Shown here: in pieces, positions 118-49,692 of the stretch
How positions within the stretch are numbered: position 1 is the first letter of the stretch
Layout: each line of letters starts with the position of its first letter
Origin: Candidatus Alectryobacillus sp.
GTDB taxonomy: Bacteria > Bacillota_I > Bacilli_A > RFN20 > CAG-826
Assembly (NCBI GenBank): GCA_036735985.1
Contig: DAINNH010000004.1
Span: 1-61,021, forward strand
Length of the DNA stretch: 61,021 nucleotides
Direction of reading: 5' to 3'
The notes under the pieces: generated by a model
Told to the model about the DNA's origin: nothing
What the model saw: only the letters and a program-made list of their open reading frames with translations
The model's database searches: none
Position numbers and translations under genes: made by a program

Positions 118-1587
118 TTAATTATCACGATTACACTTTACAATCTTTTCTTTAAGCCATGGAACAAGTTTTTTAAACTCATCAAAGGAAACAAGTTTCC
201 ATTCCCAGTTTGGTGAACCAACAGTTGATGGTGTATTCATTTTCGCTGAGTCATCATAACTTAAGAAATCTTGCATTGGAATGATCGCAAAATCCGCACG
301 ATTATCGAAAGCTAAATTAACAAAATCTTTGGCAATGTCACTATCGTGGTAGCCTAAGCGAGCTAACTTATTAACAAGTTTATCATAATCAGGTTTTTTA
401 AGAGTTTTCACCCAACCATTAATCATTTCATTATCATGGGTTCCAGTATAACAAATTTGATTGTTAATATCTTTTACGCCATATTCTTGTTTATTATAGT
501 CAAAAGTAAATTGAAGAACGTTCATGCCTGGAAGATTGTAGTGATCACGTAGTTTTAGGACACTTGGGAAAAGATCACCTAAGTCCTCAGCCACAATATT
601 AATATGTGGATACGCGCGATATAATTCGTCAAATAAAGCATAGCCGGGAGCTGTTTTCCATTCACCTTCTACCGCTGTTGGACAAGATTCAGGAATCTTC
701 CAATAAGTATCGAAAGCTCTAAAGTGATCAATACGAATAATATCAAAAATCTTACTTGAAAAACCTAAACGGTCTATCCAGAAGAAGAAATTTTCTTTTT
801 GAATTTGTTCCCAATTATAAATCGGATTACCCCATCTTTGACCAGTTTTGGAGAAATAATCTGGTGGAACACCAGCAACAAATGCGGCAGTGCCATCTAA
901 TTGAAGTAAGAAGTCTTGTTGATTTTCCCAAACATCTAATGAATCAAGTCCGACATAGAATGGAACGTCGCCCATAATCATAATGCCCATCTTAATCGCA
1001 TATTCATGAAGAGCCGCCCATTGTTTAAAAACAACGTATTGAATCCACTTTTCATAATTAATCTTATCAAGGTATGGAGTTAAATCAAGTTTATGATCCT
1101 TGATATAGTTTTTCATATCTTCACGCCAATAACACCACATTTGGTTATCGTTTTCTTTTTTAAATGTGACATAAAGAGCATATTCATTAACCCATGAATT
1201 ATCTTTAACAAATTGATCGAATTCCTTAAAGTCTTTTCTATTGATGAAATTAGCATAAGCTTCTTTTAAATATTCTTCTTTAAAAGCTCGGACTTCTTGA
1301 TACATTGTAACCGTAGAATTCTTATTAAATTCTTTGATTTCATTTAATAAACCTTCTTGTTTTAACATATCAAGAGAAATGTATAGCTCATCCATTGCCT
1401 TGGATGAATATGGTTGATATGGTGAATTGCCAAATCCTAATGGATTAAGTGGTAAAATTTGCCATACCTTAATTTTAGATTCCTTTAAGATATCAATAAA
1501 CTCATAAGCATGAGGACCAAAATCACCAATACCTTGTTCACTTGGTAAGGATGAAATCGCTAATAAAACACCTGCAATTCTTCTCAT
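118..1587 (-). CDS. malQ: 4-alpha-glucanotransferase (amylomaltase, GH77)
   Basis: Motifs WQILPLNP, SPYQPYSS, GDVPFYV, GVPPDYFS.TGQRWGNP, RIDHFRAF, AEDLG, YTGTHDN. Start moved to ATG 1587 (MRRIAGV) because of SD AAGGAG. Confidence 0.95.
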   Translation of the reverse strand: MRRIAGVLLAISSLPSEQGIGDFGPHAYEFIDILKESKIKVWQILPLNPLGFGNSPYQPYSSKAMDELYISLDMLKQEGLLNEIKEFNKNSTVTMYQEVRAFKEEYLKEAYANFINRKDFKEFDQFVKDNSWVNEYALYVTFKKENDNQMWCYWREDMKNYIKDHKLDLTPYLDKINYEKWIQYVVFKQWAALHEYAIKMGIMIMGDVPFYVGLDSLDVWENQQDFLLQLDGTAAFVAGVPPDYFSKTGQRWGNPIYNWEQIQKENFFFWIDRLGFSSKIFDIIRIDHFRAFDTYWKIPESCPTAVEGEWKTAPGYALFDELYRAYPHINIVAEDLGDLFPSVLKLRDHYNLPGMNVLQFTFDYNKQEYGVKDINNQICYTGTHDNEMINGWVKTLKKPDYDKLVNKLARLGYHDSDIAKDFVNLAFDNRADFAIIPMQDFLSYDDSAKMNTPSTVGSPNWEWKLVSFDEFKKLVPWLKEKIVKCNRDN

Positions 1588-1671
1588 AACTTTCTCCTTT
1601 TTAACTATATAAATTCTACCATAGAAATACAAATATACTAGTCTAAACCAGAGTTTCAAATATATTAGAAT

Positions 1672-1696
1672 AAAGGCGTTTTTCAACGCCTTTTTC
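1672..1696. terminator. Intrinsic terminator after pullulanase
   Basis: AAAGGCGTT-tttc-AACGCCTTT perfect 9-bp stem with T-rich flanks. Confidence 0.75.
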
Positions 1697-1719: not shown

Positions 1720-4485
1720 TTATTTAATAGCAACAATCGTCTGGAAGGCGTTTAATTTAGTCGCACTTGATAAGGTTGCATAAATACCTAAAGTATCAAC
1801 TAAAACACTATATCCGCTAAAATCAATACTTCCTAAAGTACTAGATTTATAGCCATTAGCATGCGCGACTTTAATACTGCTATTATTAATCGTAAATGAA
1901 TAGGAAATATAATTACTATCTTCACCCACTTCAAATTTAATATTGGTACATTCAGCATTACTTAATGAGAAATATTTTGATTTAGTTTTGAGTTGGATTA
2001 AAGCACGATAGTTATTAAATAAACTTTGATGTTGTTCTTTTAAAGAATAATCTAAGGTGTTAATTTCATAAGAAGAGGAATATGAATTGCTAATACCTTG
2101 TTTGCTACGAAGGAATTCTTCGCCAGCTAACATAAAGCTTGTACCTTGAGATGTAAAGACAACGGCATTAGCTAATTGATTCATTTGTTCAATTTGATTA
2201 TCAGCTCTAATACCAGCAGCTTTAAAACGATCATATAAGGTATAGTTATCGTGACAAGTAACATAGTTAATGCACTTTTCGGATTCATAAACGGTGCTTG
2301 AACTAAAGACTTTTCCAGCAATTCCGGATTGAATATCACCAAGACTTGATGGGTAATCAGTTTCATCAATCCAGCCTTTTTCAGTTGAATCAGATAAACC
2401 ACCTTTAATTAAAGCATCTCTCATCTTATCGTTAAAAGAACCAAAACCTTCATATTTATTAATACTGGATTGAGCAGCACTTATTGTTTTTAAAGCACTA
2501 TCTCCGCCTGTCCATGGTTCACCATAAACACGCACAAATGGCGAAACGTTATCATGTAAGTTGGCTGTTAATTGATTCATGGTTTCAAGATCATGTAAGC
2601 CCATTAAATCGAATCTAAAGCCACCTAATTTATATTCGCTTGCCCAGAACTGTGTGGATTCAATCATGAATTTACGGAACATTGGTCTTTCACTGGCTGT
2701 TTCATTACCACAACCGGACCCATTGCTTGGGCCAACGGAAGTATAACGGAAATAATAATGAGGCATTAAGACATCAAAATTACATCCTGTTAAACCAGAA
2801 ACGTGATTATAAACCACATCCATAATAATATTAATTCCACTATTTACATAATCTTTAACAAGTGATTTAAATTCACGAATTTTAGTATAGCCATCGTAAG
2901 GATTAGCTGAATAAATGCCATCAAGAGCATTATAATTTAATGGATTATAACCCCAGTTAAATTCACGTTTAGTTCCATCCGTGCGATCAGCATCTGGAAG
3001 TTCATTATTAGCTTGATCAAAGATTGGAATAATTTGAACTGCATTAACATTTAAATCTTTAATATGATCAAAGCCGGTTGTAACTTGATGATATTTGGTG
3101 CCACTTTGATGGAAGCCTTCATAAAGTTTAGCATTTTGAGCTGTTCCACCCCAGGTTGACGAAGAAGTTAAATCCGCAATATGGGTTTCATAAACAACCA
3201 AATCACTTGGATTATATTCATTAATCTTAACTTCATCCCATCCGGTTGGATTAGTTTTGCTAAAATCAACAATCATACCACGTAAACCATCGATACCTGT
3301 AGATTTAGCATACGGATCAACAATTTCTTGATTTTCAAAACTCGAATTAGTAACAACATAAGTATAATATTTTCCAGCTAAATCGCCTTCAACAGTTGTT
3401 GAGAAGACTCCAAAATCACCTAAGGTCATATCATACTCTTTATAAGTATCATCGCCTTTAGTAGCACTAACAGCTACTGGGGTACCGTTATCATAAATTC
3501 TTAATTTAATGATACTCGAAACTGGTGACCAGACTCTAAAGGTGGTATTATCAACCGTATAAGAAGCTCCTAATTCACCATTATAATTGTAAGTAGCATT
3601 GAATTCGGCCGTATTAAATATTGCGCCATTATCGCAGGTTTTAGTTAATGTAGCTCCTGAAACTTGGAAAGTAATGTCAAGAGTGAAGACATCTTTAACA
3701 TCAGTTTTAGTTTTATCAATTAAATATACTAATTTAGTATTGCTTAAAGATAAAATATTCGCATCTGTTGAAGAAAGAGTGCTTGATTCAAGGAAAATAC
3801 TACCATTTTTAAAGATTGTAAACTTACTATATGGTTTATTCGTTAAGAAATAAATCTTTAATTGATCAAGAACATCATTATAAGTTAACATGAAATCTTT
3901 AACGATATCATTAACCTTGCCATCTGCTGAAACATAGATTGTTTTATCATTTGTTTTTAAATAAATATGATAATATTTGGCTTCATTTGGGGTATAGTCT
4001 TTTATAGTTATCGTACGATCACCATCTGGATCTTTATTAACATTATTCCAACCTGGACCATCTTTAACAATAAAAGAGACATCAACTGGGGTGCCAGCAG
4101 AAGTAAAATCTTTCCAACTATATTTAGCATAGGCTCCATAATCATCTAAGCCATTAAATTTATAATCAGCTCCATCTTTACCAGTCGCCCAAAGCCACAA
4201 ATAGTATTTATTATAATCGGCTCCTTTCTTTTCAAAGTGGAAAACAAAACCACCCGCAGGATCATCTGGTAAACTCGTTGTTTCAAGTCCACCTTGAGAT
4301 GTTTCTTCACTTGAGGTAGTTGTTTCTTCACTTGAGGTAGTTGTTTCTTCATTTGTTGTCTCGCTGGAAGTTTTACCTTCATCACTAGTGTCGCTACGAC
4401 TACTAGTCGATGAATCAACTCCACAGGATGTTAGAGCTAAAGCTAAAGTTAATAAAATAGTTTTAGCAAGTAATTTAATTCTCAT
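1720..4485 (-). CDS. pulA: Type I pullulanase (GH13), lipoprotein with N-terminal CBM41-like module
   Basis: Lipobox LALTSC, S/T-rich linker, CBM41-like YLWLW..G..F...DDYG, FRVWSP, IVDPYA, FNWGYNP, DVVYNH, GFRFDLMG, YGEPW, CHDN (catalytic D/E/D intact). Confidence 0.92.
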   Translation of the reverse strand: MRIKLLAKTILLTLALALTSCGVDSSTSSRSDTSDEGKTSSETTNEETTTSSEETTTSSEETSQGGLETTSLPDDPAGGFVFHFEKKGADYNKYYLWLWATGKDGADYKFNGLDDYGAYAKYSWKDFTSAGTPVDVSFIVKDGPGWNNVNKDPDGDRTITIKDYTPNEAKYYHIYLKTNDKTIYVSADGKVNDIVKDFMLTYNDVLDQLKIYFLTNKPYSKFTIFKNGSIFLESSTLSSTDANILSLSNTKLVYLIDKTKTDVKDVFTLDITFQVSGATLTKTCDNGAIFNTAEFNATYNYNGELGASYTVDNTTFRVWSPVSSIIKLRIYDNGTPVAVSATKGDDTYKEYDMTLGDFGVFSTTVEGDLAGKYYTYVVTNSSFENQEIVDPYAKSTGIDGLRGMIVDFSKTNPTGWDEVKINEYNPSDLVVYETHIADLTSSSTWGGTAQNAKLYEGFHQSGTKYHQVTTGFDHIKDLNVNAVQIIPIFDQANNELPDADRTDGTKREFNWGYNPLNYNALDGIYSANPYDGYTKIREFKSLVKDYVNSGINIIMDVVYNHVSGLTGCNFDVLMPHYYFRYTSVGPSNGSGCGNETASERPMFRKFMIESTQFWASEYKLGGFRFDLMGLHDLETMNQLTANLHDNVSPFVRVYGEPWTGGDSALKTISAAQSSINKYEGFGSFNDKMRDALIKGGLSDSTEKGWIDETDYPSSLGDIQSGIAGKVFSSSTVYESEKCINYVTCHDNYTLYDRFKAAGIRADNQIEQMNQLANAVVFTSQGTSFMLAGEEFLRSKQGISNSYSSSYEINTLDYSLKEQHQSLFNNYRALIQLKTKSKYFSLSNAECTNIKFEVGEDSNYISYSFTINNSSIKVAHANGYKSSTLGSIDFSGYSVLVDTLGIYATLSSATKLNAFQTIVAIK
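4301..4351. repeat. 21-bp tandem repeat (2.4 copies) encoding TTTSSEE linker of pullulanase
   Basis: GTTTCTTCACTTGAGGTAGTT at 4301-4321 and 4322-4342, partial third copy 4343-4351; in frame. Confidence 0.9.
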
Positions 4486-5234
4486 TTTAATTCCTCCAAT
4501 TTATTAAAATTTGTAGTGTAATCACCCGAAATCGACGTTTCGACACGTGTTTTCGCGGTGAGATTATTTGTAATTGAAAAAAGTGATAAAATCATTCCAT
4601 CTTTATTCACGCTAAATTGGTGTTTACCACTTATTTCGTTACCATCTTTATCCGTACCCCCAAAATTCACTTTATATGTTAGGATATCTTTTGTTTCATT
4701 AAGTGAGAAAAACGAATAATATTTGGCGCAATTTGCAATAATATAGTCACCATAATACGCCCCGCCACTATGATAACCCGATTCAAGTTTAATATAAAAC
4801 ACATTATTAATGGAGGTTTTAACATCGCTATCCAAATACTTTAAATCTGTTAAAGTACTATCCGTCTTTTTCATAGAATAAACACTATTATCACTTTTTA
4901 TGTACGTTAAAATTTCTTCTTGATGATAATTATATTGCCCATCTTTAGTACCATAATAAGTTCCCTCAACTTGGGTAATAGAATAGAAATACATTAAATC
5001 TTCTTTATTAAAGTAATTAGTGACACTTATTTTTCCTTCTAAATTATCATTTGAATAATAAGAGGAAGTAATATTTGTTGTCCCCATTACGACATTTTTA
5101 GCACTTGTATCATAACTAATGGCATCAACAAAATCTTTAATATCTCCTTCAGGGATCTTCTCACCACACGAGGTAAGAAGTCCACAAGATATTAAAGATA
5201 ATGTTAAAATCTTTAAAATATGTGAACTAGGCAT
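4482..5234 (-). CDS. Hypothetical lipoprotein (250 aa)
   Basis: Lipobox LLTSC after start MPSSHILK (ATG 5234, overlapping the upstream stop); its TGA overlaps the pulA ATG. No recognisable family. Confidence 0.8.
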   Translation of the reverse strand: MPSSHILKILTLSLISCGLLTSCGEKIPEGDIKDFVDAISYDTSAKNVVMGTTNITSSYYSNDNLEGKISVTNYFNKEDLMYFYSITQVEGTYYGTKDGQYNYHQEEILTYIKSDNSVYSMKKTDSTLTDLKYLDSDVKTSINNVFYIKLESGYHSGGAYYGDYIIANCAKYYSFFSLNETKDILTYKVNFGGTDKDGNEISGKHQFSVNKDGMILSLFSITNNLTAKTRVETSISGDYTTNFNKLEELK

Positions 5235-5901
5235 TATAGGTATACTTTGCTCCACCATAGATTGATTCACTATCTGGATCACTATGGGCATTAATTGTGG
5301 CAAAGCTTTCTTCAATTAAAAGACCGTATTTATCATAAGTAGCGGAACAATTCCATTTTCCGTGACCTTCCATATCCACTGGTCGATACATTTTTAAAAT
5401 CTTATTGGCGGCAAAGGAACGAATTGTAAAGCCGCCATCACTATTTAAGTAATAGTAAACTTTATCAATGCCATCTTTACGAATAAAGGCCGCTTCAAGA
5501 CGATATTTAGTAGCTAAAGTTAAGCCTTGAGTATCAATCGATGAGGAATTCCAATTCGCCGTTGTTAAATGTAATGGTAATCTTAAATAAAATGAAGAAT
5601 TGGATTTTGAAAATTCGCTTGGTGAGTCATTAAAAGCTTTAGGAGTACCTTTTGCGACCGTATCAACTGAAGTTTCAAACTTACCATCTTCATTGGCCAT
5701 AGCATAAAAATTAATGCTGCCTTTTACATCATAGGTCGATGGAATATAGGTTCCATCTAATTTTTGGATGACTTTAGCGGCAAAAGTATCGCCAACTGTT
5801 TCTTCATATCCAGGTAATGGGTTCTTACCATCAATTCCACAACTGACTAACGCCATCATTACAGCACTAAGCAGTAAGAAACGCCCTCCTATTTTTTTCA
5901 T
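5227..5901 (-). CDS. Hypothetical lipoprotein (224 aa)
   Basis: SD AAGGAGGA, signal peptide with lipobox ALVSC; no recognisable family. Confidence 0.82.
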   Translation of the reverse strand: MKKIGGRFLLLSAVMMALVSCGIDGKNPLPGYEETVGDTFAAKVIQKLDGTYIPSTYDVKGSINFYAMANEDGKFETSVDTVAKGTPKAFNDSPSEFSKSNSSFYLRLPLHLTTANWNSSSIDTQGLTLATKYRLEAAFIRKDGIDKVYYYLNSDGGFTIRSFAANKILKMYRPVDMEGHGKWNCSATYDKYGLLIEESFATINAHSDPDSESIYGGAKYTYNA

Positions 5902-5937: not shown

Positions 5938-8487
5938 CTAGTAAATCTTAATATCCATGCCTTTTTCAGTAATATGACATTTATTGATATCATAAGTAAC
6001 GAGAATTTTATCATCGACTTGAATACCATCAATGTTTTTAACTTCGACATAAATATTCTTAATTCCTTCGCCATCATCACATTCACAAAGGAGATATTTG
6101 TGAGTATCATAATCTAAAATTTGTTTAACTGTGGCTTCAAAACCTTCTTCTTGCGATAAGGTATAGCCATCGTGAGGAATCTCAACAAGATATTGTTTAG
6201 TAAAGACTTTAACGCCTAAACCTTGAATCATCTTATTAGAAATAGCATCACTCGAAAGAGTTACTAAATCTTTAATCTTAAAGAAGAAAATAATACCAGC
6301 ATGCATCTTTTCTTCATTAAAGGCTTTTAAAGTATCCTTATATTTTTGATTAAGTTCTTTCTTAATACGCTTAAATGGATAAGCTTTATCATTGCAAGTA
6401 GCCACCACATCGTTATATTTCTTATTAGCTGCTTCTTTATTACGTTTTAAGTTGCCTTTTAAGGAATTAACTTCGGTTTCAAAACGAATAGCTTCAAGAT
6501 TTAATCTCTTATCAAGTTCGTTATGTTTTTCGAGGTTAAAGTTCGAATTGAAATCATGGTGATCTTGAGCACGTTTACGATAAGCATCATGATCTTTATT
6601 AATAGCCTTAAAGTCCATAAAGGTCTTATTTTCTTCGTCTCTAATCTTGTTATAAGTTGTATTTACATCATTAATAATCTTTTCGTTATTATCTTTATGC
6701 TCTTCATTTAACTTTAATAAATTTTCTTTAAATTCAGCATTAAGTTGAGCCACTTCTTCGATCAAATTGGCTTTCGCTTCCATGATCACTGGCTTATTTT
6801 CTATAACGATAGGCGCACTATTAAACGTAGAATATTCCGTTTCTTTTGCTTTATATTCTTCAAGAATGCCTTGAAGAATAGGTGAATACTTAGCTTTAAC
6901 GTTATTTAAACGCTCTTCAAGAGTACTATTAAATTTATCACCAACATAAGATTTAGCAGTGGCATAGTTAAGGAACATCGCATTAAGACGATCATAAACT
7001 GGGATTGATTCTTTAACAACTTTAGCTCCACTAGTAAAGTTAAATTGAGTAAAGTCGAGTCCAAATTTTACTTTATTCCCAACTTTAATTTCACTATCAC
7101 TATGAGCAAAAAGTAAGACACCACTCACACTTAAATCAAGAAGGAAGTGGTCGCCCATCTTTTCACATTTCTTAACTTCCGCACTATATTCGCCACCATT
7201 AAGTAAGATTGAACTGGTTGGAACAAGAACATCATAACTACCCGATGTGACATCAATGGCGCTAGGAAGTTTAACTTCGAGACTGCCAATATGCATTAAA
7301 TGATCTTTAACTTCACTTACTACGAGATTTTCTTTTGGATCACGTGGCATAATAGAAACTTCGGATTGTTTATCAAACATATGGACTCTATTAAGGTTTA
7401 AAGCAGCTTTAACAACTTGGCCTTTCTCGATACCATAAGTATTTTTACCTTTAATAATAATACGGGTTGTAGTTTCACCAAAACCATCACCTTCCATATT
7501 AATATCACCATAAATAAGGGTTTCGTTACCAAGTTCCTCAAAGTGTGAAACTTTAACATCGATGGTCGTTGAACTATTTTTAACAATTTCAGGATCAACG
7601 CTGACATCTTCGCATCTTAAACCAACCCAAACAATGGTCTTATTATCAAAATAATGAGGTTGAACTTTATTTAAAGTTGCAAGTGGAAGTTTAACCGCTC
7701 CTTTACTCGAAATAAAGTTAATAGTCGCGACATCTTTATCCTTCGATAAAGTTGCTTCAAAGAAGTTCATTTGTGGAGTACCAATAAAGCCCGCAACGAA
7801 CTTATTATCTGGATAATCATACAAATTCTTAGGAGTATCAATTTGCATAATTTTTCCTAATTTCATAACAACAACACGAGTACCAAGAGTCATAGCTTCG
7901 ACTTGGTCGTGAGTAACATAAATAAAGGTTGTCCCTAATTGATCGTGAAGTTTAGCAATTTCACTACGCATTTGGGCACGTAATTTGGCATCAAGGTTAC
8001 TTAAAGGTTCATCAAGTAACATGACTTTCGGGTTACGTAAAATAGCTCGACCAAGAGCGACTCTTTGACGTTGACCACCGCTCATAGCACGTGGTTTACG
8101 ATCAAGATATTCCGTTAAGCCAAGGACGTCAGCCGCCCATAGAACTTTTTCGTGAATAACATCGTTTGGTACATGGCGTAATTTGAGACCAAACGCCATA
8201 TTTTCATAAACGGTCATATGAGGATAAAGAGCATAGTTTTGGAAAACCATGGCGATATCTCTCTCTTTAGGTTCAATATCATTCACGATACGATCCCCAA
8301 TATAGAGTTCACCTGCACTAATATCTTCAAGACCAGCAATCATTCTTAAAGTTGTTGATTTACCACATCCACTTGGACCAACAAAGACAATAAATTCCTT
8401 GTCCTTAATGTCCATTGTAAAGTCACTAACCGCTTTGGTACCATTTGGATAGACCTTATAAATGTGTTCTAAACGTAATCCTGCCAT
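5938..8487 (-). CDS. msmK: MsmK/MalK-type sugar ABC ATPase with very long C-terminal extension
   Basis: [62 protein letters not shown]; TOBE domain to about aa 383, then about 465 extra aa. Confidence 0.9.
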
Positions 8488-8504: not shown

Positions 8505-10193
8505 TTACTTTAATATAGCAATTGAGTATGGGGGCATATGTAAGCTCCCATCACTATTTAAACTAAGATAACCTAATGTTTTATCAGCCACTAACTGGCC
8601 GACAACATTCTTGAAGCCCTTCGAGATAAATTCAACGTCTTGATAAGTGTCACTTGAACAATTATAGACGATGCCAAGGGCATCTTCGCCATCACCTTTC
8701 TTAACAAACAACTCACAACTTGGATCACGGACAATTTCAACTAACGTCGTATTGCCATGGGAAATTAGTGGGAATCTATTACGAAGATAAAGAGCTTTCT
8801 TATAATAAGATAGTATCGAATTATCATCACTAAGCTGTTCTTTCACACTTGGATAATAATAATGAGAAGTTGTAATGCCATCTGGTGAACGGGCGTTTCC
8901 AAGATTTTTATCTTCGCCCCATTGCATCGCAAGACGGACATTTTCATCTGGCTCTTCCCCAGCGTTTGTGCCAGTCATTCCAACTTCGTCCCCATAATAG
9001 GTGAAGGTTGAACCTTTAAACATCGAAAGGCAACCATATTGGAATTTAGATTTAGCAACTAGTTTTGGAAGAGTGGTAGTAAAGCGTGGAGTATCATGAT
9101 TATCGATGAAGGGAGCGCTAATGCCGCTTCCAAGCGATATTTCATCATTCGCTAGCATTAAATTATAATAAGATTTAATACCGCGACCATATGGAGATGT
9201 TACTCCAATGATTCCACTTGAATTCGTAACACTGGTATCGAAATTAAAGAACGAATCAATGCCACTTTCATAATAAGATTTAATTGTCGAAGTTCCACTC
9301 CAGCATTCACCAACTATGTAAGCCTCTGGATTAATCGATTTAACATATTCATTTAATTCCTTAAGATAAGCGATGTTTTTGCTATCTTGGCTTAAATAAT
9401 AGTATTTGACGGCATCAAGGCGGAACCCATCTATTCCACGATCGAGATAGAATTTCATAATATTGCGAAATTCAGCTCTCACGTATTGACTATCGAAATT
9501 GAATTCAGGCATTTTTGCGAAGTTGTCTTCCACATAGAAGGTATGATTCGCAACCTGATAAGCCGGACTTTCAAGATATCCAGGAATAGCTTCTTTCGTA
9601 TCATAAAAGGAATAAAAATCTTTAAATTTTTCTTCTTCACTAGTCAACGTTTCACCATCAAGCCACTTTTGATGAGCTAAGACAGCTTTAGTATAATAAG
9701 GATGAGATAATGAAGAATGATTTAGAACTAAATCCAGAATTAACTTAATGCCTCGAGCGTGACACTCTTTAATAAGATTATCTAAATCTTCTAAAGTGCC
9801 GTAGCTTTTATCAACATTGTAGTAATCAAGAATATCGTATTTATGATAAGAATTAGAAGTATTAATTGGCATGAGCCAAATTCCATTACAACCGAGATTT
9901 TTAATATAATCCAGTTTTAGTGTAACTCCGTTTAAATCGCCAATTTTATCAGCGTTGCTATCATAAAAACTTCGAACAAATATTTCATAATAATTACGAT
10001 AGTTATCGCTTGGCGTTGAAGGAGTAATAATCTCTTCAGTAATTTCCGAATTAGTTAGACTCGTTGAAGTATCACTAGTTGTATCAGTTGTTGTAGATTC
10101 TTTGCTACTATCTAATGAATTTTCTCCGCACGAGACAATGACTAACGAGGATAATAATGGAACAATAATACCTAGATATTTTTTAATCTTCAT
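8505..10193 (-). CDS. GH13 alpha-amylase family lipoprotein
   Basis: Lipobox VIVSC, S/T linker, YEIFVRSF.D, GIWLMPI, YHKYD, DLVLNH, GFRLDAVK, GECW, NHD. Confidence 0.9.
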   Translation of the reverse strand: MKIKKYLGIIVPLLSSLVIVSCGENSLDSSKESTTTDTTSDTSTSLTNSEITEEIITPSTPSDNYRNYYEIFVRSFYDSNADKIGDLNGVTLKLDYIKNLGCNGIWLMPINTSNSYHKYDILDYYNVDKSYGTLEDLDNLIKECHARGIKLILDLVLNHSSLSHPYYTKAVLAHQKWLDGETLTSEEEKFKDFYSFYDTKEAIPGYLESPAYQVANHTFYVEDNFAKMPEFNFDSQYVRAEFRNIMKFYLDRGIDGFRLDAVKYYYLSQDSKNIAYLKELNEYVKSINPEAYIVGECWSGTSTIKSYYESGIDSFFNFDTSVTNSSGIIGVTSPYGRGIKSYYNLMLANDEISLGSGISAPFIDNHDTPRFTTTLPKLVAKSKFQYGCLSMFKGSTFTYYGDEVGMTGTNAGEEPDENVRLAMQWGEDKNLGNARSPDGITTSHYYYPSVKEQLSDDNSILSYYKKALYLRNRFPLISHGNTTLVEIVRDPSCELFVKKGDGEDALGIVYNCSSDTYQDVEFISKGFKNVVGQLVADKTLGYLSLNSDGSLHMPPYSIAILK

Positions 10194-10196
10194 AAA

Positions 10197-11171
10197 CTAA
10201 CCTTTAACAGCACCACCAGTGACACCTTCAACATAGTATTTTTGTAACCAGAAGAAGAGAGCCATAATTGGGATTGAAACAAACACGCCAGCTGCACAGA
10301 AGACAGGGAAATATTTTTGACCATTTTCCTTAGTCATCATTTGTTGAAGGCCAACAGCAACGTTAAAGAGATCAGCATGACCTTGAGCAAGATAACTAGC
10401 GAGCATATAGTCGCCCCATGGGCCGACAAAGGCAAGTAAAATTGTATAAACGACAATTGGCTTAGAAAGTGGCATAATAACATGCCAGAAAATGGTATGT
10501 TTATTAGCGCCATCAATCATTGCGGCTTCATCTAGCGAATGGGAAATTGTATCGAAGAAGCCTTTAGCAATATAGTAGTTCATGGCTGAACCACCAATAT
10601 AAACAAGAATAAGACCAAAGACACCAGCATAACCTTGAGTTAAACCAAGCATCTTTAAAATGAAGTAAACAACGACCATTCCAAGGAAACCAGGGAACAT
10701 GCCGATAATAAGAATTAACTTCATATAATTACGTCTTGTTTTAAATCTTAAACGGGAGAAAGCATAAGCAGTCATAAGAGTTAAGACTGTTTGTAATATA
10801 GAAGTAACTAAAGCAATTACAAATGTATTAAGGAACCATCTCCAGAATGGATAAACTGTATCTGTAAATAAAGAAATGTAATTATTAAATGTCCAAACTT
10901 CTGGAATAAAAATAGCAGCTTGATAAGTTGTCGCAAAGGATTGGACAAGTAAATATAAGAATGGTAATAACCAAATAATAGATAAAACAACTAAGAAAAT
11001 ATAGGTAATAGTTTTTGAAATACCACTACGAATACGACGACGAGTACCTAAACGGGATTGTTCAGCGAAAGCTGAAGTATTCACGTTATCAGTCCCATGC
11101 GATCTTTGCATAATACGAGAGGTAATTTCTTCAGGAGAAGAACAAGCCAATTCTTTTTCATTAATACGCAT
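10197..11171 (-). CDS. malG: Maltodextrin ABC transporter permease (MalG/MalD-like)
   Basis: Six hydrophobic segments, EAA motif SLDEAAMIDGA, ends LQKYYVEGVTGGAVKG. Confidence 0.9.
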   Translation of the reverse strand: MRINEKELACSSPEEITSRIMQRSHGTDNVNTSAFAEQSRLGTRRRIRSGISKTITYIFLVVLSIIWLLPFLYLLVQSFATTYQAAIFIPEVWTFNNYISLFTDTVYPFWRWFLNTFVIALVTSILQTVLTLMTAYAFSRLRFKTRRNYMKLILIIGMFPGFLGMVVVYFILKMLGLTQGYAGVFGLILVYIGGSAMNYYIAKGFFDTISHSLDEAAMIDGANKHTIFWHVIMPLSKPIVVYTILLAFVGPWGDYMLASYLAQGHADLFNVAVGLQQMMTKENGQKYFPVFCAAGVFVSIPIMALFFWLQKYYVEGVTGGAVKG

Positions 11172-11173
11172 AA

Positions 11174-12712
11174 TTATTGGAAATCCTCCTCATTTTTAAC
11201 AGCACTTGATCTTCCGTAGAAGATAAGTGAAATAAAGGCGACAATAACGAAGACAATAATACCGATAACACTCGCGACGCCATAATCCTTATTAACGTTA
11301 GTCATAGCAATCTTATATAACCAGGTGATTAATAAGTCGGTTTGACCAGCACCAAAGATATCAGTCGAAATTGGAACACCACCAACATTTGTAAATAATG
11401 GATTACCACCACTAAGGAGGTAAATAACGTTAAAGTTATTAATATTACCAACGAATGATTGAATTAAATATGGTCCAGTAACAAATAACATATAAGGAAG
11501 AGTAATCTTCATATACATCTTAACTGGGCTGGCTCCATCGATTCTGGCTGATTCATATAAATCAGCTGGAATATTCATTAAAATACCAGAACACATTAAC
11601 ATGGTATAAGGAATACCAATCCACATATTAACAACAATGATTGTGATTTTAGCAATTAAACCATCTTCAAGGAATTTAATATTTGTGCTAATCCAGCCAA
11701 GATTCTTTAAGATGACGTTAAAGGCGCCAACATCGGTATTTAAGAATTTAGATAAGAAAAGTAAGGAAATAAATTGTGGAACAGCTATTGTTGTAATTAA
11801 AATAGTACGCCATAATTTCTTTAACTTAATTCCCTTCTTATTAATAATTAAAGCGACGATCATTCCTAAGAAATAGTTGGTGAATGTAGCAAAAAACGCC
11901 CAAACCAATGTCCAAAGTAAGATTTGACTAAAGACATAGGCAAACTCACCACTATTGCCACCTAAACCAAAAAGCTTTTCAAAATTATATACGCCAACCC
12001 AATCGAATAATTCTTTTGGAGCGTAGAATCCAGTTGAATAATTGGTAAAGGCAACCAAAATCATAAATATTAAAGGAATAATAGTAAAAATGCATAAGCC
12101 AAAGGTTGGGAAACCTAAAAGAACTTTATGGTAATTCTTACCAACTAAGTCATTTATAGTTTGTTTTTCCGAAACCACACGTCCTATGCGTTGTGAATTT
12201 TGTAAAGTAACACTATCTTCAATTTGCTTAACCCATAAAAAGACACATATGCCAATTAAAATAAAGGCTATGACAGAATTCAATAAAATAGTAAAACTAT
12301 CATCATGGGAAGTAACAATTGCCACTGAAGTGTTTGGATCAACATATTCAGAATAAGCTGTGTTACCAAAAGTGCCAAGTTTACCTAAAGATGGTCCACC
12401 AATAAAAATCATAAATAGAATAAAGGCAACTTCATAAACTAAATTGAGAATACCTCGAAAAAATTCTTTCCTTGTAAATTCACCAAAACCCATTACGAGG
12501 AATGATAAACGAGTCTTCCAGTCACCATCAACAAAGTTATTATATAAGGTAACAAAAAAGTTGGTAATTTTCTTAAAGAATTTCATGAACGCATTTGGAA
12601 TACTCTTTGATATAAAATGCCAAATGCCTAGAGGAATCGCCTTAAAAAAAGATAATGTCTTATATAAAATCCTTTTAGGGGTTGAAAGTGAAAGATATTC
12701 AATAGTCGTCAT
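11174..12712 (-). CDS. malF: Maltodextrin ABC transporter permease (MalF/MalC-like)
   Basis: AFTNY, NMWIGIPY, LYESARIDGA, NINNFNVIYLL, TDLLITWLY motifs. Confidence 0.9.
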   Translation of the reverse strand: MTTIEYLSLSTPKRILYKTLSFFKAIPLGIWHFISKSIPNAFMKFFKKITNFFVTLYNNFVDGDWKTRLSFLVMGFGEFTRKEFFRGILNLVYEVAFILFMIFIGGPSLGKLGTFGNTAYSEYVDPNTSVAIVTSHDDSFTILLNSVIAFILIGICVFLWVKQIEDSVTLQNSQRIGRVVSEKQTINDLVGKNYHKVLLGFPTFGLCIFTIIPLIFMILVAFTNYSTGFYAPKELFDWVGVYNFEKLFGLGGNSGEFAYVFSQILLWTLVWAFFATFTNYFLGMIVALIINKKGIKLKKLWRTILITTIAVPQFISLLFLSKFLNTDVGAFNVILKNLGWISTNIKFLEDGLIAKITIIVVNMWIGIPYTMLMCSGILMNIPADLYESARIDGASPVKMYMKITLPYMLFVTGPYLIQSFVGNINNFNVIYLLSGGNPLFTNVGGVPISTDIFGAGQTDLLITWLYKIAMTNVNKDYGVASVIGIIVFVIVAFISLIFYGRSSAVKNEEDFQ

Positions 12713-12776: not shown

Positions 12777-14072
12777 CTATTTACTTGCGATAACGGAATC
12801 GTTAAATGTCTTACAAGCAGCGGCAAGATTTTCTTCAGTGACTGTTCCATCGATCATACCATTGATTAATGTAGCAGGAGCGCTCCAGAAGTTGCCTGGA
12901 ACTGAAGTTTGAGCATGTGCAAATGTGCCTTGTTCAGAAAGAACGGCGATATTAGCATTAGCTTTAACTGTAGCATCAGCAGCAGCAGCGATATTGCATG
13001 GAGCTGTTTGATATTCAGCAAAACGTTTTAATTGAGCTTCTTTGCCAGAAAGATATTCGGCAAGTCTGTGAGCAGCAACTAACTTATCAGCATCACCCTT
13101 TGCTGGGTTAACACCAAATAATTTACCACCTAAGAATGCACCAAGATGTTTTGTTGTTCCATCGACTGTAACTGTTGGCATAACGGCACAACCATAATTG
13201 TCACCTAAAGCGGCTTTATAGTTTGCAATATCCCATGTACCAGCCATACAAGCAATAAGACCATTGGCCTCTGTTGGAGGTTCCATTGTCTTTGTCCAAG
13301 AAGCATCTTTAACAATCTTCATGATAGCTTTAGCAGCAGCAATACCTTTAGCACCATCGAAATCAGCAGTTGTTGATTGAACGACACCATCAGCATCATA
13401 AACGATCTTATAGTCAGCGCCGAATGTGAACATAGCAGCACCGCCCCAGAATCCTTCTGGTAAATTATAGCCAACTTTCTTACCAAGGGTACCAGCTTTA
13501 GCTAATAATTTTTCCATTGAGCTAACATCATCAGCACTTAAGACTGACTTATCATATTGTAAATAATATGTGTTATCACCAGTGTAGGCATAAGCATAAT
13601 ATTCATCATTGAATGTAGCAGCATCTTGACCAAATTTATTGATGTTTTCTTCGATATAAGTCTTGAATTCACCAGAAACTTTAGCAAGAGCACCAGCCTT
13701 GAATAAGCCAGCTAATTTATCAGCAGCAAATTCATAGACGTCTGGTCCTGTTGTCCAGTCTGTGACTTCTGAGTCAATTTTATCTGGACCATGTTCGACA
13801 TAATTGATGGTGTAAGTATTCTTATCACCAGCAGCAGCACGAGCAGCTTTGAAGTCTTCAAATAAATCTTGGTTGAAAGTTTTGTTTGAAGCTGTACCAG
13901 AATATTCAATAGTAATTGCTTTTCCTGGTTCTACTGAAGTAGTAGGTTGTGAAGTTGTTCCATCGTCTTTTGATGTTGTAGCAGGGGTTGATGTTGTTCC
14001 ACCACAGCTAACAAGAGTAAAAGCCATTGCGCTAGACGCGGCAACGACCAATAATCTAAATGCTTTTTTCAT
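12777..14072 (-). CDS. malE: Maltose/maltodextrin-binding lipoprotein
   Basis: Lipobox TLVSC, PDVYEFAAD, YAY, GGKLFGVN; first gene of the malEFG cluster; codon usage typical of highly expressed genes. Confidence 0.85.
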   Translation of the reverse strand: MKKAFRLLVVAASSAMAFTLVSCGGTTSTPATTSKDDGTTSQPTTSVEPGKAITIEYSGTASNKTFNQDLFEDFKAARAAAGDKNTYTINYVEHGPDKIDSEVTDWTTGPDVYEFAADKLAGLFKAGALAKVSGEFKTYIEENINKFGQDAATFNDEYYAYAYTGDNTYYLQYDKSVLSADDVSSMEKLLAKAGTLGKKVGYNLPEGFWGGAAMFTFGADYKIVYDADGVVQSTTADFDGAKGIAAAKAIMKIVKDASWTKTMEPPTEANGLIACMAGTWDIANYKAALGDNYGCAVMPTVTVDGTTKHLGAFLGGKLFGVNPAKGDADKLVAAHRLAEYLSGKEAQLKRFAEYQTAPCNIAAAADATVKANANIAVLSEQGTFAHAQTSVPGNFWSAPATLINGMIDGTVTEENLAAACKTFNDSVIASK

Positions 14073-14304: not shown

Positions 14305-16005
14305 CTATTTTATTTTAAATAAATAGCACTCAAAAGGACGCAAATTAATAAAATTATTATCAATAATTTCATCTTTATAATTATGAAGCAAAACTTCACT
14401 ATTTGGGAAATAATTCCTAAATGATAGGGATTCGCTAGTAAAATTAGACACAACCATAATAGAAGTTCCACTTCCTAAATGTGTATAAGCAAAAACTTTA
14501 TTATTTTCGGGTTCAACTATTTCAAAAGGATAATTAAAAATTGCATTTAAAATATCGTAATTATGTCTTAATTTAGTTGCAGATCGAAAATAATTTAAAA
14601 TTGAATCACAATCCTTATCTTCATCTTTTTCATTGCAAATTGGATAATAAGAAACGTTTTTAATATATGGCTTATTCGTTGAAAATCCTCCATATTTTTC
14701 GTTGCTCCAACAAAATGGCGCTCGGGCATTCTGACGAGAACATCTTTTAAAGAAACGCATTAATATTTCATCACTTAATTGAGGATTAGCTAGTTTAAAG
14801 TTACGATCACTAACATTAACAAAATCAGATAAAGAAGAATAATCAACGTTAGACATGCCTATTTCATCACCATATAAAATAAAAGGCATTCCATACATAA
14901 ACAATAAGGTAGTAGATAACATTTTCGCAGATTCATTGCGGTATAAAACACTGCCATATTGTGATAAGCAACGTGGTTGATCATGGTTATTCCAATATAA
15001 AGGCATATCAGCCTCTTTATTACAAATGTCATACCATCTCTTAAAAATTGATTTTAAATTAACAACATTTGTTTTAATTTCACTATCTTCTTTTTCAAAA
15101 GAGCCATACGCTCCATTTTCCCAGCAAGTATCAAAATTAAAAACCATATTAATTGAGCCTTTAGTATAACTAGAATAATTTAAAGCTCCTTCTGATGAAA
15201 TACATCCTCCAACTTCACCAATAGTAATCGCGTTATATTTTTTAAAGACATTTTCATTAAATTCTTTTAAATAATCATAAAGACGTGGACGATTAGAATA
15301 ACGTCCCATATCAAAAACTAAACCATCTAAATCAGCTGGAAGATTTGAATCTTCAAAAGAAACATCTTTCGCTAAATGTGCAATCGCGTCAAGACGAAAG
15401 CCATCCACTCCTAATTGAAGCCAAAAAGTAGCAACTTGTTCCATTTGTTCACGTAATGCAAGGTTTTCATAATTTAAATCAGGCATTTTCTTTGAGAAAA
15501 TATGAAAGAAATATTCATCAATTTGAGGAACATATTCCCAACAAGAAGTATCAAAAAATCCTTTCCAATTATTTGGAGGAAGTTTCTCGCCATTAGGTCC
15601 AATCTTACCTTTTTTAAAAAAGTAATATCCATGTTCCTTAGAATTAACATCTTCACAAGCTTTTTTAAACCATGGATGTTCACTACTTGTATGATTTAAT
15701 ACGAGATCCAATAAAATTTTAATGCCTAATCCGTGAGCTACTTTGATTAATTCTTTCATGTCATCAAGGGTTCCAAACATTGGATTAATATCATAAAAAT
15801 CACTAACATCATAACCATCATCATCCATTGGAGATTTAAAAATTGGGCAAATCCAAATAAGGTCAACATTTAATGATTTAATATATGGCAATTTCTCAAT
15901 TATGCCTTGTAAATCGCCAATTCCATCACCATTGCTATCTTTAAAAGAAGCAGGAAATATTTGATAACAAACATATGAATTATAAGCGTGATCAAGTTTA
16001 TTCAT
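14305..16005 (-). CDS. malL: GH13 alpha-glucosidase / oligo-1,6-glucosidase family
   Basis: YQIFPASF.DSNGDGIGD, DDDGYDVSD, DLVLNHTS, NNW, MPDLN, GFRLDAI, GEV, NNHDQPR. Ala (not Val) after the nucleophile suggests alpha-1,4 preference. Start set at ATG 16005, 1 nt after the MFS stop. Confidence 0.85.
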   Translation of the reverse strand: MNKLDHAYNSYVCYQIFPASFKDSNGDGIGDLQGIIEKLPYIKSLNVDLIWICPIFKSPMDDDGYDVSDFYDINPMFGTLDDMKELIKVAHGLGIKILLDLVLNHTSSEHPWFKKACEDVNSKEHGYYFFKKGKIGPNGEKLPPNNWKGFFDTSCWEYVPQIDEYFFHIFSKKMPDLNYENLALREQMEQVATFWLQLGVDGFRLDAIAHLAKDVSFEDSNLPADLDGLVFDMGRYSNRPRLYDYLKEFNENVFKKYNAITIGEVGGCISSEGALNYSSYTKGSINMVFNFDTCWENGAYGSFEKEDSEIKTNVVNLKSIFKRWYDICNKEADMPLYWNNHDQPRCLSQYGSVLYRNESAKMLSTTLLFMYGMPFILYGDEIGMSNVDYSSLSDFVNVSDRNFKLANPQLSDEILMRFFKRCSRQNARAPFCWSNEKYGGFSTNKPYIKNVSYYPICNEKDEDKDCDSILNYFRSATKLRHNYDILNAIFNYPFEIVEPENNKVFAYTHLGSGTSIMVVSNFTSESLSFRNYFPNSEVLLHNYKDEIIDNNFINLRPFECYLFKIK

Positions 16006-16006
16006 T

Positions 16007-17278
16007 TTAAATATTTGCACTATTATCTTTTTTATTTATTTCCAAAGATTCTTGTGCGTCCTCCTTTTTATCGTTTTTATAAGATTTATATGTGAAAATA
16101 TAAAGCGTTACTGCCAATATTTGACATATAAATGATACCAAACAAAATGCCAATAAACTAACATTATATAAATATCCAAGTAACCATGAGCCTAAAAACC
16201 AAAATAGACCAAGGAAAGTATCATAAATGCCAAAGCCTTTCGAACGGTTTTCTTTAGTTGTAATAGTCGTAACTACCGCCTTAAAAACTGATTCAACTGC
16301 CCCCATACCAACACCCCAGAGAACAACACCTACTATAATTTGCCATAAAGAATTTGCATAAAAAATAAAAAACGAAAATGGCGAGGCAATTAAACACGAA
16401 ATCACTAAACTTAAAAAATTCTTTTTATCATAAAGATAGCCAAATATTAAAGCAGATAAGGCATCAATAAGCATCGCCAAAGAATAAAGTAGAGCCAAAT
16501 AATTTTCTGGTACTAATTTTAGTTCTGCTGCTCTAACAGTTATTAATGAAAAGTCAACGAATCCAAAACCAAAGAGACAAATTGAAATAATAAAAAGAAC
16601 GAATGTTTTATTAATAATTTTTGAATTAACCTTTGTTTTGCTAGGTTTTTCAAAATTTTCCGGATGTGGAAAACGCGTTTTTGCAATTATAAGAAAAATG
16701 AAACAAGTTAAGGCTGGAATTCCAAGAATTGCAAAAGTAATTAAGTAAGTTTTAAATTGCGTATCTTGTACTAAATAAGTCGCGCAAAGAAAAACAATAA
16801 TTGGGCCTAAAAAAGCTCCAAACTGATCAATAAATTCTTGAATTGCGAAACTTTTACCAACGCCTTCTTGGGTGCTCGCAAAAGAGACAAGTGAATCTTT
16901 AGCTGGTTTTTTAATCGCTTTTCCAACTTTTTCCATCGTAATGAAAAAACAAGCTAAAATCCAACCATTCTCAGGAACAAGTGCTAATAAAGGGATACAT
17001 ATTAAATCTAAGACATATCCCAAAATAGTAATTAACCAATATTTTTTAGTTTTATCAGCTACATAACCCGTTAAAATACGTAAAGTATAGCCAATAAACA
17101 TACCTAAACCCGAAACAAAACCAATTGCGGTTGTATTAGCTCCACTAAGAGTTAAAAAGTCGCCAATTACGGAATTGGCGCCCTCGTGAGTCATGTCGCT
17201 AAAAAGCGAAACAAAACCCATTAATAATATAAAGATAAAGGCTTGAGAAAATATTCTTTTGTTCTCATTTTTCTTCAT
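16007..17278 (-). CDS. MFS transporter
   Basis: About 12 hydrophobic segments, GYVADKTKKYW loop motif, GKAIKKPAKDSL, GYLYDKK second-half motif. Confidence 0.88.
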   Translation of the reverse strand: MKKNENKRIFSQAFIFILLMGFVSLFSDMTHEGANSVIGDFLTLSGANTTAIGFVSGLGMFIGYTLRILTGYVADKTKKYWLITILGYVLDLICIPLLALVPENGWILACFFITMEKVGKAIKKPAKDSLVSFASTQEGVGKSFAIQEFIDQFGAFLGPIIVFLCATYLVQDTQFKTYLITFAILGIPALTCFIFLIIAKTRFPHPENFEKPSKTKVNSKIINKTFVLFIISICLFGFGFVDFSLITVRAAELKLVPENYLALLYSLAMLIDALSALIFGYLYDKKNFLSLVISCLIASPFSFFIFYANSLWQIIVGVVLWGVGMGAVESVFKAVVTTITTKENRSKGFGIYDTFLGLFWFLGSWLLGYLYNVSLLAFCLVSFICQILAVTLYIFTYKSYKNDKKEDAQESLEINKKDNSANI

Positions 17279-34952: not shown

Positions 34953-34976
34953 AATCACAACCTCCTAATATATAAA

Positions 34977-49679: not shown

Positions 49680-49692
49680 TAAGGAGAATCTT

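Follow-up and report, generated by a model that had tools for sequence, protein, structure and literature searches.

The window, a stretch of 61,021 nucleotides from a Candidatus Alectryobacillus sp., a gut bacterium whose genome is small, encodes an ABC importer ATPase of 849 aa. We read it as the MalK/MsmX orthologue of a maltodextrin importer, in which the regulatory domain has been copied twice and a helical hairpin added, the resulting tail probably acting as a docking scaffold (a reading to which we give a probability of roughly 0.55). What is known here is the MalK/MsmX ATPase core; what appears to be new, as judged from sequence and structural models, is a tripled regulatory domain with a helical arm, a build shared by no fewer than 86 related species. 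A literature search found no description of this architecture, hereafter NBD-RD1-U2-arm-U3.

The ATPase core and its operon

The gene and the segments of its product are as follows:

5938..8487 (-), long MalK/MsmX-type ABC importer ATPase, whole coding sequence, 849 aa plus stop (ORF list)
7783..8487 (-), nucleotide-binding domain (NBD), aa 1-235 (Pfam ABC_tran, E 8.5e-31)
7360..7782 (-), RD1, the canonical MalK regulatory domain, aa 236-376 (Pfam OB_MalK and a weak TOBE_2 match)
7333..7359 (-), proline-rich conserved linker, aa 377-385 (I379, P381 and P384, and N387 just after it, at least 90% conserved in a 77-sequence alignment)
6967..7332 (-), U2, second regulatory-domain-like beta unit, aa 386-507 (AlphaFold2, hhalign)
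6292..6966 (-), alpha-helical hairpin arm, aa 508-732 (AlphaFold2, pLDDT mostly >90)
6550..6633 (-), arm tip, aa 619-646, with the loop NKD at 630-632; most conserved portion of the arm
5941..6291 (-), U3, third regulatory-domain-like unit, aa 733-849 (AlphaFold2 beta unit with a helix at 747-763; hhalign)
6163..6249 (-), most conserved stretch of the tail, within U3, aa 747-775 (77-sequence alignment)

The frame is single and uninterrupted, with an AGGAGG ribosome-binding site 7-8 nt upstream. The catalytic motifs, which the first-pass annotation had described as intact, were all located in the NBD: Walker A (aa 37-44), the Q-loop (Q83), the signature (MSGGQ, 135-139), Walker B (155-161), the D-loop (163-166) and the H-loop (H193). 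The NBD has a dN/dS of 0.024 and, among 76 orthologues, a mean identity of 88%. The OB_MalK match of RD1 (aa 236-294) scores 26.8 bits, just below the cut-off of 27; the UgpC and MalK models of NCBIfam cover aa 1-376 end to end (E 2e-135 and 3e-117). PRK11650, the model of the UgpC subfamily, reaches 451 bits over this region against a cut-off of 432, and the MalK equivalog model aligns from end to end as well, yet under its cut-off. The same region is 53% identical to Bacillus subtilis MsmX. In Foldseek, the full AlphaFold2 (AF2) model aligned with MsmX and MalK chains at TMt 0.85-0.95 and 42-55% identity (0.90-0.95 for MsmX 6yir and 7x0q, with about 377 columns superposed); these alignments place MalK on the N-terminal half only, and the tail needed a separate model.

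Over aa 1-376, the long ATPase thus has the NBD and regulatory-domain build of MsmX, MsmK and MalK (PDB 6yir, 7x0q, 1q12 and 2r6g), and it shares with them the catalytic motifs and an operon that also encodes permeases of the MalF/MalG type and a binding protein. On the evidence of the NBD, RD1 and the permease and binding-protein neighbours, it is a MalK/MsmX-type (CUT1) importer ATPase, with ATP-dependent sugar uptake as its predicted activity. It departs from the known members in length: the usual CUT1 ATPase has about 350-380 aa (an NBD and one regulatory domain) and the solved MalK and MsmX chains have 353-375 aa, whereas the long ATPase adds 473 aa and is about 2.3 times the normal size, in agreement with the first-pass estimate of more than twice.

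The neighbouring genes are:

12777..14072 (-), solute-binding protein (Pfam SBP_bac_8; syntenic at 70 of 80 loci)
11174..12712 (-), MalF-type permease (Pfam BPD_transp_1; syntenic at 72 of 80 loci)
10197..11171 (-), MalG-type permease (Pfam BPD_transp_1; syntenic at 72 of 80 loci)
8505..10193 (-), GH13 alpha-amylase with a lipoprotein signal, directly upstream of the ATPase (Pfam Alpha-amylase, E 5e-83; lipobox in the translation; syntenic at 74 of 80 loci)
5227..5901 (-), lipoprotein A, 224 aa, directly downstream of the ATPase (lipobox LVSCG)
4482..5315 (-), lipoprotein B, whose translation probably begins only at the ATG near 5234 (lipobox)
1720..4485 (-), pullulanase-type GH13 lipoprotein (Pfam PUD, CBM_48 and Alpha-amylase; 42 loci)
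118..1686 (-), MalQ, 4-alpha-glucanotransferase (Pfam Glyco_hydro_77, E 1e-143)

The operon runs in the order solute-binding protein, MalF, MalG, GH13 amylase, long ATPase, two lipoproteins and pullulanase; MalQ, too, lies on the downstream side. Lipoproteins A and B belong to no known family and have no match in Pfam; tblastn matches to A lie in the corresponding place at 37 loci, B has tblastn matches in 43 loci and is 38% identical to an Anaeroplasma bactoclasticum neighbour, and small ORFs with a lipobox lie downstream of the ATPase in most of 72 loci. This gene context indicates that the long ATPase serves the maltodextrin/starch importer encoded in its own operon. The neighbours are all starch or maltodextrin genes, and the partnership with UgpA, UgpE and UgpB that goes with sn-glycerol-3-phosphate is absent; the automatic name "UgpC" is therefore probably wrong on substrate. 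Although the UgpC subfamily model is matched, the tail has no counterpart in UgpC and the context is not ugpBAE. The earlier idea of a shared ATPase is not supported, the gene being fixed in one maltodextrin operon at 70-74 of 80 loci, in contrast to B. subtilis MsmX, a 'multitask' ATPase with a stand-alone gene (PMC7658222). That ATPases of this type can be exchanged between species is established (PMC7658222).

The layout of the tail

The 473 aa beyond position 376 are made up of two more regulatory-domain copies and a helical hairpin of 225 aa. In the AF2 models, which are of the monomer (pLDDT 88-93 overall, 92.7 for the tail-only model), aa 386-507 are all-beta, aa 520-730 fold into four long helices, and a single helix accompanies the beta structure of aa 734-841. 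The tail-only model matched 32 PDB chains of the MalK/MsmX family at E<1e-3 and probability 1.0, over 100-137 columns and with an rmsd mostly of 3-5 A, the output leaving unspecified whether U2 or U3 is the unit aligned; it also matched the di-TOBE protein ModE (1o7l) at E 9e-3. By profile-profile comparison with hhalign, RD1 resembles U2 (E 9.9e-5) and U3 (E 4.7e-6), and U2 and U3 resemble each other (E 4.5e-10), a significance that needed the 77-sequence profiles, as single sequences or 9-sequence profiles gave only E 0.005-0.05. Family models and sequence searches were silent: with a threshold as lax as E<=10, the TOBE and OB_MalK models of Pfam detected neither aa 377-508 nor aa 729-849, and the tail as a whole had no match in Pfam or NCBIfam; phmmer against PDB sequences returned 0 matches. 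Models and profiles together show that the MalK regulatory domain, with its OB/TOBE-like fold, is present in two more copies, U2 and U3. The first-pass annotation had placed a second TOBE-like unit at about aa 385-500 and a third near the C-terminus, and both are borne out; that these segments might not fold as OB/TOBE domains is excluded by AF2, Foldseek and the profile comparison. ModE, ModC and ModG likewise carry tandem small beta-barrels at the C-terminus of a transport-related protein, but U2 and U3 have no evident oxyanion-binding motif and no Pfam TOBE match, and here an arm is inserted between the units.

The helical run of about 220 aa, rich in K, E and N, that had been noted at 6930-6285 corresponds to aa 520-735 and is helical in AF2, with helices at 520-552, 558-629, 633-702 and 704-730. 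It had been called a coiled-coil insert; it is a long helical hairpin, and in all four helices the hydrophobic period is 3.65-3.75 residues, with low power at 3.5. Thus, the arm is an antiparallel alpha-hairpin and not a classic, left-handed heptad coiled coil; a hendecad-like, nearly straight arrangement fits better. With 110 residues per side it would reach roughly 15-16 nm, if the helices are collinear. Its length is 222-229 aa in 77 of 77 sequences, with the identity of the arm to that of the window protein dropping to 16%. K, E and N abound in the arm; for the window protein its net charge comes to about +1, and the family mean is +5 over 225 residues. An arm so nearly neutral does not point to a ligand such as a membrane or a nucleic acid, and binding to either by the arm was rejected on this ground.

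The tip is better conserved (mean column conservation 0.58) than the four helices of the arm (0.37-0.50), with E619, N630, D632, R639 and F646 conserved in at least 90% of the sequences. Its motif, NKDxD...R, contains no CxxC and no Cys or His metal hook, and its conservation could reflect structure alone, the hairpin being closed by helix caps together with a small hydrophobic staple. An ABC ATPase head with a very long antiparallel hairpin and a conserved apex is also found in SMC, Rad50 and MukB. The arm of SMC and Rad50 interrupts the ATPase domain between Walker A and the signature and has a hinge or a zinc hook at its end, whereas the NBD of the long ATPase is continuous (aa 1-235) and its arm lies between regulatory copies. 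No homology to SMC or Rad50 was detectable, the Foldseek matches being to generic helices at rmsd >25 A; a Foldseek comparison with viral structures likewise gave generic long-helix matches only (rmsd >13 A).

Conservation and origin of the tail

A genome scan found the tail conserved in 86 species genomes; the scan patterns were taken from aa 747-775 of U3 in five long forms, and the count is biased towards long forms with that motif. The distribution of orthologue lengths, a check suggested at the outset, is narrow: 75 of the 76 complete copies from other species genomes have 841-853 aa, and the full-length form is present in about 90 further protein clusters. The dN/dS values of U2 (0.12), the arm (0.125) and U3 (0.058) imply purifying selection on every segment of the tail. 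Within U3, positions conserved in at least 90% of the sequences are D747, I749, N751, K752, Q755, G758, V761, F762, K764, P771 and H772. The tripled domain is carried by gut and rumen Bacilli and Mollicutes, including Anaeroplasmataceae, Candidatus Onthovivens, Candidatus Enterosoma and Candidatus Pelethenecus, and most of these genomes have the arm; one species of the family, Anaeroplasma bactoclasticum, is cultured. The literature search turned up no trace of the coiled-coil inserts in Mollicute ABC ATPases of which the first-pass annotation had been reminded, and among the 66 matches of an exhaustive search there was no Mycoplasma-type protein of about 585 aa.

Five relatives of MsmK (P0037, P0056, P0063, P0064 and P0112) are shorter, with 619-634 aa, and have the order NBD-RD1-U2-U3. 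They lack the arm and instead connect U2 and U3 through a short beta-turn, with some 20 aa of linker, and the conserved helix motif of U3 is weaker in them; their genes sit in the same kind of maltodextrin operon. Because this turn joins the two units in the short forms, the alignment of long and short proteins shows that the arm is an insertion into the U2-U3 beta-turn, which adjusts the earlier placement of the insert inside the regulatory domain. We read the origin of the tail as two steps: the regulatory domain was first copied twice (RD1-U2-U3) to give the form of 619-634 aa that persists in related loci, and the 225-aa antiparallel hairpin then grew from the turn between U2 and U3.

Possible roles of the tail

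We infer that the most likely role of the tail is that of a cytoplasmic regulatory and docking scaffold. In a MalFG-(MsmK)2 complex, U2 and U3 would enlarge the cytoplasmic regulatory base beneath both NBDs, and each MsmK subunit would project one arm of fixed length into the cytoplasm. Docking of other proteins would then fall to this arm and to the strongly conserved surface of U3 (aa 747-775), and could couple the activity or position of the transporter to a partner, possibly another copy of the arm. The model for such docking is Escherichia coli MalK, whose single regulatory domain binds MalT and EIIA-Glc. C-terminal domains of importer ATPases are regulatory in other cases as well, such as MetN (C2) and ModC (PMC10710835).

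A second explanation, possible but distinctly less probable, is self-association, in which the arms pair through the conserved tip or lengthwise. Within one transporter this would clamp the MsmK dimer or swap U2 and U3 between subunits; between transporters it would cluster importers beneath the amylase and pullulanase lipoproteins of the surface. Rad50 arms join at their apex, and an ABC ATPase bearing a long antiparallel hairpin whose apex is conserved invites the analogy, but a metal hook of Cys or His is missing from the tip and the structural matches to SMC and Rad50 are, as described above, generic. The strictly kept arm length would suit a geometric role. Membrane-anchored starch enzymes are always present in the operon; cytoplasmic arms, however, cannot directly touch extracellular lipoproteins. 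A precedent for domain swapping is offered by FbpC, where the regulatory domain is domain-swapped (PMC2896483).

It is also conceivable, though we consider it improbable, that the arm is a fixed-length tether whose conserved tip joins arms or docks a cytoplasmic partner, ordering importers into defined assemblies under the membrane. Somewhat more doubtful still is a small-molecule sensor, in which a di-TOBE-like pocket of U2 and U3 would bind a metabolite (a sugar or sugar phosphate) and trans-inhibit the ATPase, the arm being a strut only. In ModC and MetN, trans-inhibition does work through such domains (TOBE and C2; PMC10710835), trans-inhibited importers having their substrate site where the regulatory domains meet, and the match of the tail model to ModE points the same way; against this, Pfam TOBE models miss both units, no known ligand-binding motif was recognised, and the 225-aa, length-conserved arm is left unexplained. 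Finally, an artefact in which mis-assembly joined two genes, or a decaying, functionless low-complexity K/E-rich expansion, would agree with the K/E/N-rich arm and with a tail that has no Pfam family, but can be given almost no credence, since the same full-length ORF recurs at almost one length in 76 independent genomes and in the further clusters, and the arm combines a dN/dS of 0.12 with AF2 confidence >90; orthologue lengths and clusters rule out the gene-fusion artefact, including the assembly error raised in the first-pass annotation.

Among ABC importer ATPases MalK is the textbook case, and the coupling of transport to gene regulation and catabolite control is modelled on its single regulatory domain. 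In the long ATPase, the constant length of the arm against a drifting sequence implies a function in geometry or docking and, to our knowledge, no ABC importer is known to have one of that kind. If the tether reading were true, it would be a new way to regulate or position an ABC importer and a mechanical analogue of the Rad50/SMC arms, evolved independently from a regulatory domain, and the assemblies would lie under the membrane of bacteria that include the wall-less Anaeroplasma. If the tail only stabilises the dimer, the annotation would still stand corrected, with a clear case in which a domain was duplicated and then received an insertion. Gut metagenomes contain many members of the family, which is mislabelled 'UgpC', and its cultured member, A. 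bactoclasticum, makes the question open to experiment.

The long ATPase and its operon

The reading frame at 5938..8487 (minus strand) runs uninterrupted for 849 aa from an ATG preceded, at 7–8 nt, by a ribosome-binding site (AGGAGG). The NCBIfam UgpC and MalK models cover its aa 1–376 end to end (E 2.3e-135 and 2.8e-117), and the following features were located in the protein:

aa 21–162, ABC_tran (Pfam)
aa 37–44, Walker A, GPSGCGKS
Q83, Q-loop
aa 135–139, signature, MSGGQ
aa 155–161, Walker B, VMLLDEP
aa 163–166, D-loop, SNLD
H193, H-loop
aa 236–294, OB_MalK (Pfam)
TOBE_2, weak Pfam match

The full-length AlphaFold2 model (mean pLDDT 88.5, pTM 0.69) superposes, over about 377–390 Foldseek columns, on Bacillus subtilis MsmX (6yir; 53% identity, TMt 0.90), a Clostridium thermocellum ATPase (7x0q; TMt 0.95) and Escherichia coli MalK. 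These solved proteins have 353–375 aa each, so that the long ATPase is about 2.3 times their size; the first-pass annotation, which had reported intact catalytic motifs in a protein more than twice the normal length, was right on both counts. By homology, aa 1–376 are assigned to the MalK/MsmX family and predicted to work like that family, and the protein is a complete MalK-type ATPase, presumably an active one. In the window, the genes follow one another on one strand:

14305–16020, minus, GH13 alpha-glucosidase
12777–14072, minus, sugar-binding protein (SBP)
11174–12712, minus, MalF-type permease
10197–11171, minus, MalG-type permease
8505–10193, minus, lipoprotein GH13 amylase, preceding the long ATPase
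5938–8487, minus, long ATPase
5227–5901, minus, lipoprotein A, no Pfam family, directly downstream of the long ATPase
4482–5315, minus, lipoprotein B, likewise
1720–4485, minus, lipoprotein pullulanase
118–1686, minus, MalQ

The SBP, MalF, MalG and amylase genes lie at the same offsets in 70–74 of 80 related loci; the long ATPase is therefore a fixed part of a maltodextrin/starch-utilisation operon and not an orphan, which speaks against its earlier description as a shared ATPase. Both small downstream genes keep their position in most related loci. In the 72 loci that extend far enough beyond the ATPase, most copies have a lipobox-like motif and a large glycosidase usually comes next; by tblastn, lipoprotein A was detected in 37 and lipoprotein B in 43 of the 80 loci. 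Each may be a starch-binding protein of the cell surface or an accessory protein of this locus. Between its lipobox and catalytic domains, the pullulanase has an N-terminal, repetitive Ser/Thr/Glu-rich linker, TTSSEETTTSSEETTTSSEE, probably a flexible stalk keeping the enzyme off the membrane. With 451 bits against a cut-off of 432, the NCBIfam subfamily model is only just passed, which is why relatives of the long ATPase are automatically named 'sn-glycerol-3-phosphate ABC transporter ATP-binding protein UgpC'; the label is probably wrong as to substrate, and the operon context points to maltodextrin.

Two other reading frames in the window are unusual. One (31845–34958, minus; 1037 aa) joins an MFS sugar transporter (aa 26–455) to a GH2 glycosidase (aa 522–932), an uncommon transporter–glycosidase combination and perhaps the second case of domain fusion in this genome. 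The other (49618–52011, plus; 797 aa), in a CUT2-type sugar ABC cluster adjoining a YesM/YesN-like two-component system (42386–45702), matches BPD_transp_2 only at aa 493–785, some 490 residues without a reported domain preceding it.

Architecture of the tail

Searches of Pfam, NCBIfam and PDB sequences gave no match to the tail (aa 377–849), for which AlphaFold2 predicts:

aa 386–507, U2, all-beta
aa 508–515, 520–552, 558–629, 633–702 and 704–730, helices of the arm, with a three-residue loop at 630–632
aa 734–841, U3 beta unit, with a single helix (747–763) inside

A tail-only model (pLDDT 92.7) agrees with this picture. U2 and U3 mirror the secondary-structure order of RD1, the canonical regulatory domain (aa 236–376). 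They escape the Pfam TOBE and OB_MalK models, so the kinship is visible only by profile–profile and fold comparison. With 77-sequence profiles, RD1 matched U2 (E 9.9e-5, 111 columns) and U3 (E 4.7e-6, 110 columns), and U2 matched U3 (E 4.5e-10, 100 columns). Against the PDB, the tail-only model gave 32 Foldseek matches at E<1e-3, the aligned unit not being given in the output; all were MalK, MsmX, SugC, GlcV or FbpC chains or MalK-fusion constructs (100–137 columns, rmsd mostly 3–5 Å, probability 1.0, 10–20% identity), and the next match was ModE (E 9e-3). The protein's regulatory domain is thus present twice more in the tail, in line with the second and third TOBE-like units first proposed from the sequence.

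In four relatives of 619–634 aa (P0037, P0056, P0063, P0064), some 20 aa link U2 to U3; in the alignment this linker lies between the closing strand of U2 and the opening strand of U3 (conserved FFF motif, aa 734–736). The roughly 225 additional residues of the long forms fall exactly there, and the alignment identifies the arm as an insertion between U2 and U3. The operon of another short form, P0112 (634 aa), is of the same kind as that in the window (MalQ, GH13, SBP, MalF, MalG, GH13, then ATPase). Likely, the regulatory domain was triplicated first and a helical hairpin then grew from the connecting turn.

The arm measures 222–229 aa in all 77 aligned sequences, at identities to the window protein down to 16%, and its net charge is near zero. 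The family-averaged hydrophobic period is 3.65–3.75 residues in all four arm helices, not 3.5, and so suits a nearly straight antiparallel alpha-hairpin more than a coiled coil of classic heptads; of the coiled-coil insert suggested earlier, the long helical segment stands, whereas a classic coiled coil is not supported. If the modelled helices are collinear, the arm would span roughly 15–16 nm, with 110 residues per side (aa 520–629). Its best-conserved part is the tip (E619, N630, D632, R639 and F646 at least 90% conserved; F626 and K631 at least 75%), whereas the best-conserved stretch of the entire tail lies in U3 (aa 747–775, DxISNKxIQxLGxKVFTKxYxxExPHD).

Distribution and constraint

Exhaustive phmmer searching of 1.84 billion representative proteins found 66 tail relatives, eight of which are about 850 aa long and match the whole tail (24–47% identity). 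When one genome per GTDB species was scanned with sequence patterns, 86 species proved to encode the tail; 80 loci were retained and 76 complete genes extracted, 75 of which encode 841–853 aa. A profile search of 5.8 billion proteins returned 98, about 85 complete (843–859 aa), those with names being "UgpC" or "multiple sugar transport ATP-binding protein". Named carriers comprise Anaeroplasmataceae, including Anaeroplasma bactoclasticum, and Candidatus Pelethenecus, Candidatus Onthovivens and Candidatus Enterosoma, beside many gut and rumen MAGs labelled Bacilli, Mollicutes, Acholeplasmatales or Erysipelotrichaceae; the window's species is absent among the named genomes, and the top tail identity is 47%.

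Mean identity to the window protein, and dN/dS from 27–29 moderately diverged pairs, by segment
NBD (nucleotide-binding domain, aa 1–235): 88%; 0.024
RD1: 45%; 0.071
U2: 29%; 0.122
Arm: 29%; 0.125
U3: 44%; 0.058

Recurrence across species, constant length and low dN/dS (0.058–0.125 in the tail) exclude a decaying insertion and the assembly-error fusion that the first-pass annotation had named as a possible refutation.

Some relatives depart from this pattern. An otherwise full-length orthologue of 820 aa (P0005, from one 2.8-kb contig), the sole clear exception in arm length, has a 27-residue gap in the third arm helix (aa 646–672 of the window protein). Three bins labelled Alistipes onderdonkii, Oscillospiraceae and Bacteroides uniformis (L043, L052, L080) carry the locus at 28–30% tail identity; these contigs are probably mis-binned, since the long ATPase is otherwise found in Bacilli and Mollicutes only. 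Three short metagenomic proteins join arm pieces (56–57% identity in P0028 and P0030, 44% in P0055) to a lipoprotein signal, an unknown 245-aa N-terminal domain or a fragment of a second ABC ATPase; assembly chimeras are the probable explanation, real mosaics a possible one. Among the phmmer relatives, the divergent P0041 (946 aa) shares the U2–arm–U3 tail, its arm being longer. Read by eye, its ATPase motifs seem degraded, with LSEDT at the signature, IDDP at Walker B and a THD H-loop lacking; it may be a pseudo-ATPase paralogue.

Possible role of the tail

Constraint is strong on the length of the arm, its tip and one surface of U3. Length kept far better than sequence is typical of spacers and tethers. 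MalK of E. coli has MalT and EIIA-Glc as binding partners. The MetN C2 and ModC C-terminal domains act in trans-inhibition (PMC10710835). Because C-terminal domains of importer ATPases have such roles, and because arm length is so well kept, we favour a scaffold. In MalFG–(MsmK)2, the extra domains would widen the cytoplasmic base holding the ATPase dimer together, and one rigid arm would project from each MsmK subunit; arm and conserved U3 surface would form a protein–protein scaffold, tying transport either to a partner or to further copies of the scaffold. To the combined statement, a MalK-type maltodextrin ATPase with a triplicated regulatory domain and an inserted hairpin as docking scaffold, we give a probability of about 0.55. 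The tail architecture and the transporter assignment are near certain; docking by arm and U3 is tentative and less likely than not.

The same length and tip constraint could be read as self-association of the arms, whether to clamp the dimer, swap domains or cluster transporters, which we consider rather unlikely. A small-molecule sensor of di-TOBE type formed by U2 and U3, in which the arm would be a strut, seems improbable, and an artefact is scarcely credible for a tail of such recurrence.

Like the long ATPase, SMC and Rad50 combine an ATPase with long antiparallel arms whose apex is conserved. However, their arm is inserted within the ATPase domain and terminates in a hinge or zinc hook, whereas the NBD of the long ATPase is continuous and its tip is without CxxC; the likeness is an analogy only (Foldseek rmsd >25 Å). 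We found no description of a U2–arm–U3 tail in the literature, and the tail is without a described counterpart. So far it is a structural oddity with a putative function, one that would surprise ABC-transporter specialists and is testable, since one carrier species is cultured.
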